Below are positions 27,869 to 34,592 of a stretch of 61,031 nt of DNA, piece by piece; the stretch's first letter is position 1, and the number at the start of each line of letters is the position of its first letter. The stretch covers positions 1 to 61,031 of IMG/VR virus record IMGVR_UViG_3300028384_000043, one strand, 5' to 3'. The position numbers and the translations under genes were made by a program. The stretch comes from a virus (lineage: Duplodnaviria; Caudoviricetes). The notes below the pieces were generated by a model. That model was not told the origin of the DNA and searched no databases. It saw only the letters and a program-made list of their open reading frames with translations.

Positions 27869-30800
27869 TTGGCTATTGTTTTTAAGAACAATGCGACTAC
27901 AACCCTATCGGGTAACATAAACTCGTCTGTAACCAGTATTGGTGTAGCAGACGGTTCAGTTTTCCCATCGTTAAATAGCGGAGAGTCGTTTCTTGTTACG
28001 TTTGATGACGGAACAAATAAAGAGATCGTAAAGGTTACCGGTAGAAGCGGTAACACCCTTACCGTCGTACGTGCGCAAGACGGTACTTCTGCACGTGCAT
28101 TCTCACAAAACGACGCTGTAGACTTACGTATTACAGCCGCGATTCTAGAAGCTTTTCCTCAGTTAGATGGAAACTCACAAACAGGTGTCATTGACATAAC
28201 CGGTGTAAAAATCGGTGGTTCTTCAATCATAGACAGTTCTGGTAATTGGCAAGGCCCAAGCAGTGGCATTAAAGGTGAAGTAGGTCCTACAGGAGCTACA
28301 GGTCCTGATGGCCCACAAGGAGACAAAGGAGCTACGGGCGCCAATGGTCCAACCGGCCCGACAGGTCCTACAGGTGCAGATGGCCCAACAGGTCCAAATG
28401 GCCCAACAGGTCCTACTGGTGCAAAAGGTGATACAGGTGCTGCTGGATCTGATGGTTCGGATGGTGCCAAAGGAGCCACTGGAGCAACAGGCCCGACAGG
28501 TCCAACTGGTAATGCTGGAGCAAAAGGCGCTACAGGTTCTAAAGGTGAAGTAGGTGTTACTGGCCCTACTGGCGATAAAGGAGCCACAGGGGCTAATGGT
28601 CCAACCGGCCCTACAGGTGCAGATGGCCCAACCGGCCCTACAGGTTCAACAGGCCCAGCTGGTAGTGACGGTTCAGATGGTGCTAAAGGTGCAACAGGAG
28701 CAACTGGTCCGCAAGGAGATAAAGGCGCAACAGGAGATAAAGGTGCAACTGGAGGCACAGGACCAACTGGAGCTACAGGCCCAACAGGGCAAAAAGGTGA
28801 AGTAGGTGCAACTGGCCCAGGAGGCCCAGCCGGTAGTGATGGCGCAGATGGCGCAGATGGCGCTGCTGGTGCAAAAGGCGCTACTGGAGCTACAGGCCCA
28901 ACAGGCCCAACAGGCGATAAAGGTGCAACAGGAGCAGCAGGTGACAAAGGAGCCACAGGTGCAGGCGGACCAACAGGTCCAACAGGAGGCACTGGTCCAA
29001 CAGGCCCTACTGGAGATAAAGGTCAAAAAGGTGAAGTAGGTGTTACTGGTAATACAGGTGCAGCTGGTAATGATGGTTCGGACGGAGCTAAAGGCGCTAC
29101 AGGTGCAACCGGCCCGACAGGATCAACAGGTGCTAAGGGGCAGAAAGGTGAAATAGGTGCTACAGGCCCTACTGGTCCAGCTGGTAGTGACGGAGATGAC
29201 GGAGCTGCTGGAGCTAAAGGTGCAACAGGAGCAACTGGTCCAACAGGTTCAACAGGCCCTACTGGTGATAAAGGTGCTACAGGCGCACAAGGCTCAACAG
29301 GTAGTACAGGAGCTAAAGGTCAAAAAGGTGAAATAGGAGCTACAGGCCCGACAGGTCCTGGAGGTTCTGATGGTAGTGATGGTGCAGCTGGGGCAAAAGG
29401 AGCTACTGGTGCAACAGGTCCTACAGGTTCTCAAGGCGATAAAGGTGCTACTGGAGCTACAGGTCCACAGGGAGCTAAAGGTCAAAAAGGTGAAGTAGGA
29501 GCTACGGGTTCTACTGGTCCAGCAGGTTCAGATGGTTCAGATGGCGCGAAAGGTGCGACAGGGGCTACAGGCCCAACAGGAGGCACAGGCCCAACAGGAG
29601 GCACAGGCCCAACAGGTTCTAAAGGTCAAAAAGGTGAGATAGGTGCAACAGGACCTACAGGTTCTCAAGGCGATAAAGGTGCAACAGGTTCACAAGGACC
29701 TACAGGTAGTACTGGTACTGGTATTACAATGGAGGGGCAAGTAGCTAATACAAGTGCCCTACCAAGTTCAGGCAACACGAAAGGTGATGCTTACATAGTA
29801 CAAGCAGACGACAGTTTACATATTTGGGATGGTTCAGCATGGGTAAGTGGTGGATCAATACAAGGTCCTACTGGACCTACAGGTTCTCAAGGCGCTAAAG
29901 GTGCAACCGGTGCAACGGGTGGCACTGGTCCAACAGGACCACAAGGAGACAAAGGTGCAACTGGTGCCCAAGGTCCTACAGGTAATACAGGCGGAACTGG
30001 TCCTACTGGGCCAGCTGGTGATAAAGGTGCTACTGGTGCAAAAGGTGCTACAGGAGCTACTGGTGGCACAGGCCCAACAGGGCCAGCAGGTTCAGATGGC
30101 AGTGATGGTGCAACGGGTGCAACTGGTGCAGCCGGGGCAAAAGGCGCTACAGGAGCAACCGGACCAACTGGATCGCAAGGGGCTAAAGGTCAAAAAGGTG
30201 AAGTAGGAGCTACTGGACCAACAGGTAGTACAGGTTCTACTGGACCAGCTGGGTCAGATGGTAGTGATGGCGCTAAAGGTGCAACAGGTCAAAAAGGTGA
30301 TACAGGTGCTACAGGAGGCACAGGTCCTACTGGTGGCACAGGTCCAACAGGTTCTAAAGGTCAAAAAGGTGAAGTAGGAGCTACAGGCGGCACAGGACCA
30401 ACTGGTTCTACAGGACCAGCTGGGTCAGACGGTAGTGACGGAGCAAAAGGAGCCACAGGTGCAACCGGTGGTACAGGCCCAACAGGTCAGAAGGGAGCCA
30501 CAGGTGCTACAGGACCTGCAGGTAGTAATGGTTCTAATGGGGCTAAAGGACAAAAAGGTGAAATAGGAGCTACAGGCCCTACTGGTGGTACAGGCCCAAC
30601 CGGCCCAGGTGGAGCGAAAGGTGCTACAGGTGCAACTGGCGGTACGGGTCCAACCGGTCCAACTGGTCAAAAAGGTGAAATAGGTGTAACAGGACCAACT
30701 GGTAATGCTGGAGCAAAAGGCGCTACAGGTGCTACTGGACCAACAGGTAGTACGGGTTCTACTGGATCGCAAGGAGCTAAAGGTCAAAAAGGTGAAGTAG

Positions 30801-32748: not shown

Positions 32749-34592
32749 TGAAAAAATTTGTAATAAACCTAAAAAATAGACCTGAGCGTAAACAACACTT
32801 TATAGATAAAAACCCAACCTTAGAAGATTACACATTTGTAGAAGCTGTAGATGGTTTGGCTCAAGACTTATCTGAGTATAAGACTAGGCCAGGGTGGATA
32901 GACCCATTTCAAAATAGAGGTATTGTACCTACAGAAGTAGCTTGTTTCTTATCTCATAGAGAGATGTGGAAAAAATGTGTAGAGTTAGATGAACCTATTT
33001 ATGTAATAGAAGATGATGCCATAATAAATGTAGATAGGTGGGACGAACCTTTTTATGACCACACCATAGGGTATTGGGATTTGCTATATTTACAACGCAA
33101 TGAAAACGAACCAGAGAATACTATAAAAGTATCTGATAAGTTGGAAAGACCTTGGTACCCATACAATACAACTGCATATGTAATATCACCAAAAGGTGCA
33201 CGAAAGCTGTTGAATACTAATATAATGAAAGAAGGTATAATACCGGTAGACGAGTACATACCCGAACAGATCAGAAACGCTAGTCTTATGGCACTTGCTT
33301 TACAAAAAGACTCTTGTAATCAAGCTACTACGGACGTGCTACCTTCTGACATACGTAACGATAGGAGAGATATGACTATACATGCAATCACAATTGGTAC
33401 AGATAATAGCAAAATGAAAAAGCTATACGACTCTGCAGATAAACACGGTATACAAATAGACAACTGGGGTGCAGGTGTTGAGTGGAGGGGCTCAGACATG
33501 ACAGGGCCAGGGGGTGGTCAGAAAGTAAACATACTAAAACAACATATAGATAACCTTTCGGACACGGATATTTTACTCTTCACAGATTCGTACGACGTTT
33601 TTTACGCAGATAACCTAGATACGATTAAAGAAAGATACTTGGATATGGGCCATAAGGTACTTTTTTCTGCAGAAGAAGTATGCTGGCCCGATCCTAGTTT
33701 AGGTAATCAGTTTCCTTCCGTACACACTAGATACAGATATCTTAACTCTGGTACGTTTATAGGTGAGGTAGGAGAAATAAAAAAGATACTAAATCACAAT
33801 ATTATAGAAGACCACCAAGATGACCAATTGTTTTACCAGCAAGCATATCTAGAAGGTCTATACGATATCGGTCTTGATGTAGAAGCTTACATCTTCCAGT
33901 GCCACGAACCTAATATAACTATGTTAGGCAATCAGTTACATAACCAAGAAACTACTTGTTGCCCTTGTATATACCATGGTAATGGTGATGACTCTGCAAA
34001 AGATAACTTTGAACGTATCTACAAAGAAATGTATCCACAGTATAATTTGTTTCATACACCTACTCATGATTACGAAGTCATAGAGAAAGACATGATACTG
34101 ATAGATTTTATGTCAGAACACCAATGCCAAAGGCTTATAGAATTAGCAGAACAAAAAGCAGAATGGAAAAGTCTACCTAACGACACTTACCCTGCACAAG
34201 AGATAAGACTAAAAGAACTTAACATATACCAAGAACTAGAAGAACATTGGCAGAACCATGTCAAACCTATAATAGAACCTTATTGGAAGCCTATGGTTGT
34301 AGAAGGTGTAAGAGATGCGTTTATGTTGAAGTATTCTACTGATTCACAAACAAAACTAGCACTACACCATGACTCCTCGCACGTAACTGGCTCAGTAAAA
34401 TTAAATAAAAACTACAAAGGTGGCGAATTAGTTTTCCCTAGGCAAGGTATAAGCAATGCTGACATACCCATAGGCAAACTGCTTTTGTTTCCAGGACAAG
34501 TTACGCACCCGCACGAATGTGTCGAACTTACTGAAGGCACTAAGTACAGTCTTACTATATGGTCACAAAGGTATAAAGGCGATATACTGTAG
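32748..34592 (+). CDS. GT25 + PLOD-type glycosyltransferase + lysyl-hydroxylase-like 2OG oxygenase fusion
   Basis: VINL..RPER, CFLSH, IEDDA; GGGQKV, FTDSYD, FSAE..CWPD, YLNSG.FIG, DDQLFY; L.LHHDSS, GG..F, FPG..TH.HE. Confidence 0.88.
   Translation: MKKFVINLKNRPERKQHFIDKNPTLEDYTFVEAVDGLAQDLSEYKTRPGWIDPFQNRGIVPTEVACFLSHREMWKKCVELDEPIYVIEDDAIINVDRWDEPFYDHTIGYWDLLYLQRNENEPENTIKVSDKLERPWYPYNTTAYVISPKGARKLLNTNIMKEGIIPVDEYIPEQIRNASLMALALQKDSCNQATTDVLPSDIRNDRRDMTIHAITIGTDNSKMKKLYDSADKHGIQIDNWGAGVEWRGSDMTGPGGGQKVNILKQHIDNLSDTDILLFTDSYDVFYADNLDTIKERYLDMGHKVLFSAEEVCWPDPSLGNQFPSVHTRYRYLNSGTFIGEVGEIKKILNHNIIEDHQDDQLFYQQAYLEGLYDIGLDVEAYIFQCHEPNITMLGNQLHNQETTCCPCIYHGNGDDSAKDNFERIYKEMYPQYNLFHTPTHDYEVIEKDMILIDFMSEHQCQRLIELAEQKAEWKSLPNDTYPAQEIRLKELNIYQELEEHWQNHVKPIIEPYWKPMVVEGVRDAFMLKYSTDSQTKLALHHDSSHVTGSVKLNKNYKGGELVFPRQGISNADIPIGKLLLFPGQVTHPHECVELTEGTKYSLTIWSQRYKGDIL

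Follow-up and report, generated by a model that had tools for sequence, protein, structure and literature searches.

In animals, the collagen-modifying enzymes COLGALT1 and LH3 are two distinct chains that associate in a complex (PMC11897130). LH3 contains a glycosyltransferase (GT) domain that, like the LH3-type mimivirus enzyme R699, is a galactosyl-hydroxylysine glucosyltransferase (PMC9546862). Mimivirus L230, which joins a GT25-like domain to a lysyl hydroxylase (LH), puts glucose (Glc) directly on hydroxylysine (Hyl; PMC9614988), and the mimivirus enzymes modify viral collagen-like proteins (PMC9614988, PMC9546862 and PMC12279948). Collagen carrying a Hyl-linked disaccharide is commonly regarded as a feature of animals, for which a single precedent exists among giant viruses. 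Here we describe a locus in the virus record IMGVR_UViG_3300028384_000043, analysed over its whole length (the window; 61,031 bases with direct terminal repeats, completeness rated 100%), in which the gene for a collagen-like tail fibre is followed by genes for two small 2-oxoglutarate (2OG)-Fe(II) oxygenases, ox1 and ox2, and for a 614-amino-acid (aa) protein. This protein, produced in the infected bacterium, is likely to be an enzyme that modifies collagen lysines without help from others, and with it the phage would probably sugar-coat its own fibre by chemistry measured so far only in animals and a giant virus.

On the phage side, the available part of PMC7029224 mentions the collagen repeats of pelagimyophages only as putative receptor-binding domains, and the word 'phage' is absent from the available parts of the LH3, COLGALT1 and R699 papers PMC12279948, PMC9546862, PMC13382579 and PMC12003778. 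A search of the full-text literature, with subscription journals outside its reach, found no paper on collagen lysine modification in phages, in agreement with a preliminary description of this DNA that knew of no characterised bacteriophage example. Functional studies of the cultured-phage relatives discussed below were likewise not found in the literature.

Each of the three domains of the 614-aa protein is homologous to a domain of known collagen-modifying enzymes. When the protein was compared by sequence with all solved structures, the best matches were human LH3 (E = 6.9e-41 for the whole protein), human COLGALT1, mimivirus R699 and mimivirus L230; the preliminary description had proposed comparison with LH3 and COLGALT1, and both are among the closest structures. 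Residues 3–174 matched the catalytic GT2 domain of human COLGALT1 at E = 1.8e-18, compared with only 2.6e-5 for a solved bacterial GT25. Residues 214–420 matched the LH3 glucosyltransferase domain (domain E = 1.7e-29) and R699 (E = 2.7e-29), and residues 448–603 matched the hydroxylase domains of L230 (E = 4.6e-10) and LH3 (E = 3.3e-9) when residues 421–614 alone served as the query. Judged from these sequence matches, the protein resembles the collagen enzymes specifically, beyond a merely generic likeness. The domains named in the preliminary description also scored above their Pfam cut-offs, both in the 614-aa protein (Glyco_transf_25 PF01755, 84.7 bits, cut-off 24; PLOD GT PF25342, 181.3 bits, cut-off 27; PF13640, 27.6 bits, cut-off 27) and in the two small oxygenases (PF13640, 2OG-FeII_Oxy_3; ox1 52 bits, ox2 33.2 bits, cut-off 27).

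The mapped active-site residues are intact. Positions were assigned by counting along printed alignments against the residues named in PMC6082870, which lists the catalytic residues of the LH3 GT and LH domains (Trp75, Asp112, Asp115, Asp190, Asp191, Tyr656, His667, Asp669 and His719), and in PMC12003778, which describes the Mn site of COLGALT1 as an uncommon Glu-Asp-Asp motif; invariance was scored over 27 homologues of 48–87% identity. In the first domain, E88-D89-D90 aligns with the Glu-Asp-Asp motif and is invariant in 27/27. In the second, W246 corresponds to Trp75, D280 and D283 to the DxxD pair Asp112/Asp115, and D358 and D359 to Asp190/Asp191, all unchanged in every homologue. The third retains Tyr656 as Y529 and the Fe(II) triad His667, Asp669 and His719 as H540, D542 and H589, again in 27 of 27. 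H410 and N412 are likewise invariant, and we take them to be the equivalents of the third Mn ligand of LH3 and its neighbouring Asn. Two positions vary among the 27 sequences: Y282, the stacking Tyr of the DxxD site, is conserved in 23 and replaced by Phe in 4, and W313, which corresponds to the gating Trp145, is conserved in 18 and replaced by Tyr in 9.

The presumed substrate of this enzyme is the fibre encoded upstream. The fibre open reading frame (ORF) matched the Pfam Collagen family PF01391 with 386 bits (E = 2.2e-118). It consists of an N-terminal non-collagen part (aa 1–132) and two unbroken Gly-X-Y runs (aa 133–618 and 666–1238) separated by a 47-aa insert, with 353 triplets in all. 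The long Gly-X-Y fibre with Y-position Lys reported in the preliminary description was recovered together with the Lys contexts it had named: 69 of the 74 Lys residues occupy the Y position and none the X position, and they lie in repeated contexts (GAKGAT 18, GDKGAT 11, GAKGQK 11 and GQKGE(V/I) 12). Two caveats raised in that description, that Pro is nearly all at X and that Y-position Thr is abundant, also held (Pro, 97 at X against 1 at Y; Thr in 192 of the 353 Y positions). The insert (aa 619–665, positions 29723–29863) may be a hinge or registration element; the fibre of a relative, L018, is broken at the same relative place (aa 586 to 634).

The enzyme family is large. The match to PHROG 61 spans the whole 614-aa protein (E = 1.1e-113), and tblastn found 12 phage records, 11 of them matched at full or nearly full length, among them S-CAM9, S-PRM1, S-8S53/55/56, a single-cell marine virus fragment and Roseobacter phage CRP-6. 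A large protein collection held 1120 relatives (E up to 1e-5), and the best 120 of the 1120 all carry both PF25342 and PF01755; 489 IMG/VR stretches encode a relative. Six full-length matches in species genomes lie on phage-like contigs of metagenome-assembled genomes (MAGs). The record itself comes from a KPP25-like phage whose major head protein is 50% identical to those of Pseudomonas phages KPP25 and phiR18; the genome also codes for a terminase, a portal protein, large virion proteins, a DNA polymerase, a primase and a helicase. Its close relatives are marine metagenome contigs. A megablast search of positions 31640–36018 against phage records gave zero matches, so that relatives in those records are recognisable at the protein level only. 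In a side observation, a 60,834-base contig placed in a Neomarinimicrobiota MAG (L238), of a length expected for a phage genome, carries a 62% identical tri-domain gene together with a collagen gene; either the contig was binned wrongly or its placement hints at a host.

The enzyme gene is strictly linked to Lys-rich collagens. The survey covered 92 loci that encode a PLOD-like ORF. The preliminary description had named one pattern that would speak against collagen modification, namely that the enzyme gene often occurs where collagen genes are absent. This pattern was not found: in 39 of the 39 phylogenetically related loci whose upstream sequence spans 6 kb or more, a same-strand collagen ORF ends 374–2946 nt before the enzyme ORF, and each of the 29 loci that appear collagen-less has less than 4.5 kb upstream. 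The linkage spans very different phages, including the T4-like cyanophages S-CAM9, S-PRM1 and S-8S55, CRP-6 and the KPP25-like phage of the record. In the three cyanophages, an S74-ended fibre with Lys-rich collagen is followed by a small ORF, two 2OG oxygenases and the tri-domain gene; in CRP-6, the collagen fibre lies two genes upstream and has 26 Y-position Lys in 99 triplets. Across the linked collagens, we counted 2991 Lys at Y and 0 at X.

For comparison, control collagens were taken from an IMG/VR scan for a DNA pattern encoding Gly-Pro-Thr-Gly-Pro-Thr-Gly (at least 78 loci, an arbitrary sample). After exclusion of two loci with a PLOD-like match (one being the L040 contig, the other cut at the contig end), 59 distinct ORFs of at least 30 triplets were left. 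Y-position Lys made up a median of 20.4% of triplets (range 12.5–45.3%) in 48 distinct linked ORFs and 0.7% in the 59 unlinked controls (rank test, P = 2e-14, which is not a true probability because the rows are related). Thirteen of the 59 controls reached 10% Y-position Lys, several with X-position Lys as well.

The domain homologies, the intact active sites and the linkage are observations; from them we infer a substrate, an order of steps, a choice of sugars and a purpose, which may be to protect or stabilise the fibre or to recognise the host. We read the locus as a module for fibre maturation. Its C-terminal 2OG-Fe(II) domain, in the 614-aa protein, would hydroxylate the Lys of X-Lys-Gly in nascent, unfolded fibre chains. 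The N-terminal COLGALT-like GT25 domain would then add the first hexose to the new hydroxyl, which would be galactose (Gal) by analogy with animals or Glc as in L230, and the central LH3/R699-like domain would add the second, Glc by analogy. The fibre would be trimerised afterwards by its chaperone domain, giving a product in which each chain could bear as many as 69 glycosylated hydroxylysines. The small prolyl-hydroxylase-like oxygenases would probably hydroxylate other fibre residues, with X-position Pro as the first candidate.

Several observations weigh against this scheme. The protein lacks the accessory (AC) domain of LH3, with about 28 residues between its GT and LH matches, and it also lacks the GT1 domain of COLGALT1, beginning directly with the GT2-like domain. 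Arg729 of LH3, which binds 2OG, is replaced by K599 in all 27 homologues, a conservative change that keeps a basic residue; Lys is used at the position contacting the 2OG C5-carboxylate by other 2OG oxygenases. Y-position Lys could instead serve charge-pair stabilisation of Pro-poor collagens, and downstream of one collagen rich in Y-position Lys (L146), 4.8 kb of sequence contain no PLOD-like gene. Conversely, a T4-like fragment (L081, 1–8613) has 4493 nt upstream of its enzyme gene without collagen, divergent structural genes and no collagen ORF in its 8.6 kb; it is the only locus off the usual arrangement, its tri-domain gene being transcribed divergently from the structural genes. As the loci are related by descent, their independence is overstated both in the count of 39 in 39 and in the rank test.

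The fibre itself adds a further difficulty and a correction to the preliminary description. Compared with relatives, its 3' end is truncated and frameshifted near position 31578, with about 90 residues of the Peptidase_S74-type chaperone domain missing and the last 37 codons out of frame, so that the record's own ORF has no complete in-frame C-terminal S74 domain. The fibres of relatives end in a complete, in-frame S74 domain (in L018, PF13884, E = 4.8e-14; compared region 7494–7943). Exact contigs from two sequencing runs stop at 31578, and the contig of a relative matches only from 31578 onward. None of the public pieces listed bridges this position, where collagen repeats yield many spurious joints. 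The break is either a real deletion or an assembly collapse at the collagen repeat.

The sugars in the scheme call for caution. As the GT25-like domain of L230 adds Glc and not Gal (PMC9614988), they are not readable from homology. One alternative therefore keeps hydroxylation of the fibre Lys but departs from the animal scheme in glycosylation, with a single sugar, other hexoses, a GT domain acting as a scaffold or a GT acting on Y-position Thr. The direct joining of Glc to Hyl by L230 and the high share of Thr among the Y positions speak for it, as does the presence of an epimerase that could supply uridine diphosphate galactose (UDP-Gal) in only 1 of 10 complete relatives. Hosts normally carry a GalE of their own, which lessens the weight of the last point. 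The invariance of the mapped metal-binding and catalytic residues of both GT domains in the 27 homologues argues against a purely structural role, and the nearest relatives of the central domain, the LH3 GT domain and R699, are galactosyl-hydroxylysine glucosyltransferases (PMC9546862). On balance, we regard this alternative as unlikely.

It is more improbable still that the protein is an auxiliary enzyme for a target other than the fibre, such as envelope glycans, another host or phage protein or DNA, and that adjacency to the fibre gene is mere gene order. Annotation leans this way: relatives are labelled 'GR25 family glycosyltransferase involved in LPS biosynthesis' or '2OG-Fe(II) oxygenase', GT25 is a lipopolysaccharide (LPS) family and PHROG 61 belongs to the category of auxiliary metabolic genes. 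By structure, ox1 matches best a prolyl 4-hydroxylase (P4H) acting on EF-Tu. The other 74 matches in species genomes are stand-alone hydroxylase domains (about 226 aa, 33–42% identity) on Actinomycetota MAG contigs, mostly, to judge by record titles, from freshwater Ilumatobacteraceae and some longer than 100 kb, and no collagen-like ORF lies within 9 kb in any of these 74 loci, which means that the hydroxylase domain can have other substrates and counts against the fibre as the substrate. However, the E value of the GT25 domain is about 13 orders of magnitude lower for COLGALT1 than for a solved bacterial GT25, the three domains jointly reproduce one pathway, and the linkage to collagen holds across unrelated phage types with changing neighbours, the linked collagens being specifically rich in Y-position Lys. 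That the genes are relics or inactive in the record's phage, as its damaged fibre gene could suggest, is very improbable, given that the enzyme genes are intact and 95–96% identical to those of many other contigs and that the break falls at the long-repeat edge of a metagenome assembly, where two exact contigs end and an assembly artefact is possible.

The proposed modification of the fibre Lys by the 614-aa protein leaves the small oxygenases to be placed. Both are predicted to have a prolyl-hydroxylase-like fold, a double-stranded beta-helix with HxD...H and Arg. In ox1, H104, D106, H165 and R175 are invariant in 27 sequences; its structure model (predicted local distance difference test, pLDDT, 85.6) matched Pseudomonas putida P4H best in Foldseek (E = 6.6e-9, template modelling (TM) score 0.68), followed by Dictyostelium PHD, the PBCV-1 collagen prolyl hydroxylase, PHD2 and Chlamydomonas P4H. 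For ox2, which has 315 representative relatives, H70, D72, H129 and R139 are nearly invariant, and its model (pLDDT 94.6) matched Chlamydomonas P4H, Dictyostelium PHD and Bacillus anthracis P4H best. The two share their fold (TM 0.5–0.68) and HxD...H plus Arg motif with the P4Hs of P. putida (PPHD, 4iw3), PBCV-1 (vCPH, 5c5t), Chlamydomonas (2jig) and B. anthracis, but sequence identity is 12–20%, and collagen P4H acts on the Y position, whereas the fibre Pro sits at X. The caution in the preliminary description that these enzymes need not be collagen P4Hs therefore stands: they are prolyl-hydroxylase-like by fold only. We also considered whether ox1 and ox2 are copies of the hydroxylase domain of the 614-aa protein and rejected this, as pairwise BLASTP gave weak local matches (E = 0.005–0.009) and Foldseek placed both nearer to prolyl hydroxylases.

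The distribution of the two genes differs. Many lineages carry ox1 together with the module, whereas ox2 adjoins the enzyme gene in the record's own lineage only. Genes like ox1 also adjoin Lys-free, Pro-bearing collagens without a PLOD-like gene (L111 and L122), which speaks against a role of ox1 on Lys. Loci with Pro-free collagens have no adjacent ox1, yet six X-Pro loci from two lineages also lack it (L050, L051, L062, L063, L072 and L075; 37–49% X-Pro triplets), and L071 has a distant ox1-like gene despite a Pro-free collagen. The co-occurrence of ox1 with X-position Pro across these loci is suggestive only, and a prolyl target for the small oxygenases is a reasonable inference. One clade of linked collagens (L049, L052–L058, L061, L071, L076 and L083) has 0–1 X-position Pro, Lys at some 40% of Y positions (in one case, 80 in 184 triplets) and no adjacent ox1.

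Table 1 Features of the fibre locus and the epimerase gene (positions in the window)
Feature	Position	Strand	Size and basis
Short-chain dehydrogenase/reductase (SDR) nucleotide-sugar epimerase, short, most like GalE	6972..7748	+	258 aa; phrog_540, TIGR01179, PF01370
Collagen-like tail fibre ORF	27869..31639	+	1256 aa; PF01391, tail-fibre PHROGs, triplet counts
Peptidase_S74-type intramolecular chaperone remnant	31578..31694	+	+1 frame relative to fibre ORF; homology to fibre ends of relatives
ox1, 2OG-Fe(II) oxygenase	31709..32275	+	188 aa; PF13640, model, Foldseek
ox2, minimal 2OG-Fe(II) oxygenase	32272..32748	+	158 aa; PF13640, model, Foldseek
Tri-domain ORF	32748-34592	+	614 aa; Glyco_transf_25, PF25342, PF13640
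Domain 1, GT25 like COLGALT1 catalytic GT2	32748..33269	+	aa 1-174; COLGALT1 match, E88-D89-D90
Domain 2, LH3/R699-type glucosyltransferase	33375..34007	+	aa 210-420; PF25342, LH3 and R699 matches
Domain 3, lysyl-hydroxylase-type 2OG-Fe(II)	34089..34565	+	aa 448-606; L230 and LH3 matches
210-aa protein	34595..35227	+	Follows enzyme gene in the record's lineage; homologue in L049

The preliminary description had also pointed to a GalE far upstream of the fibre. The gene does encode an SDR epimerase. Among NCBIfam models it matches GalE best (TIGR01179, E = 1.3e-43), and it passes PF01370, but its 149 bits in the former fall short of the equivalog cut-off of 262. Since just 1 of the 10 complete genomes of related phages has a relative of it, it was ruled out as a conserved part of the system; an accessory role as a supplier of UDP-Gal is possible. 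Epimerase genes lie 3.6 and 7 kb downstream in S-PRM1 and S-8S55, respectively.

The 210-aa protein encoded directly downstream of the enzyme gene seems to belong to the fibre module: in a distant lineage, its homologue directly follows the collagen gene (L049, 7563–8183, E = 9e-12). It matched no Pfam, PHROG or NCBIfam family, and an Atlas search gave no reliable match; a 263-aa protein encoded downstream also had no family match, and a homologue in another lineage was detectable for the 210-aa protein only. In other lineages, the slot beside the tri-domain gene holds an FkbM-type methyltransferase (L064, 8417–9004; PF05050, E = 1.9e-15), similar-looking ORFs recognised by eye only (within L048 1864–2475, L070 8106–8693 and 8690–9004, L071 8435–9004 and L081 6431–6988), a cupin (PF07883, L070) or a class I methyltransferase (L062, 8144–8953, with a weak RrnaAD match). 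Fibre-modification modules seem to vary with lineage.

If Lys modification were shown in phages, collagen lysine chemistry would enter the prokaryotic virosphere, and O-glycosylation of phage tail-fibre proteins would be widespread at sea, given the 1120 proteins and 489 IMG/VR stretches found here. More tentatively, Hyl-linked disaccharides on collagen may be routine in ocean phages, made by one cytoplasmic three-domain enzyme without an endoplasmic reticulum (ER), partners or accessory domains, with glycans serving host recognition or fibre protection and the family possibly lying near the ancestral form of LH3 and COLGALT; we rate this wider picture as slightly less probable than its opposite. 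In any case, the phage family offers a new outgroup for the origin of animal LH3 and COLGALT, and cultured S-CAM9, S-PRM1 and CRP-6 make the idea testable. The compact 614-aa protein would also be a candidate for producing hydroxylated, glycosylated recombinant collagen in Escherichia coli, where modified recombinant collagen is an unmet need according to the mimivirus literature (PMC9546862).

Set beside the known systems, what appears to be new is the placement of known chemistry in a new host domain and its three-in-one architecture. Among phages, the homologues in S-CAM9, S-PRM1, S-8S53/55/56 and CRP-6 are full-length, 36–47% identical and located downstream of collagen-bearing tail-fibre genes, and are annotated merely as hypothetical proteins or 2OG-Fe(II) oxygenases. 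With human LH3/PLOD3 (6fxk and 8zgc), the phage protein shares homologous GT and LH domains, including the DxxD Mn site, the loop Trp, the acidic pair, HxD...H and Tyr656; it differs in having no AC domain, a COLGALT-like domain fused in front and Lys for Arg729, and in acting in the bacterial cytoplasm rather than the ER, if it acts as proposed. Residues 3–174 correspond to the catalytic GT2 domain of COLGALT1/GLT25D1 (9evj, 9u7h and 8zgc) with its Glu-Asp-Asp Mn motif, GT1 being absent, and the phage has in one chain what animals divide between COLGALT1 and LH3. Mimivirus L230 (hydroxylase domain 6ax6) and R699 (9dyt) are both matched directly, and by domain content the 614-aa chain corresponds to L230 combined with the R699 catalytic domain, in a bacterial host rather than the amoeba of mimivirus. 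Unlike L230 and R699, the phage family adjoins the gene for its putative substrate.

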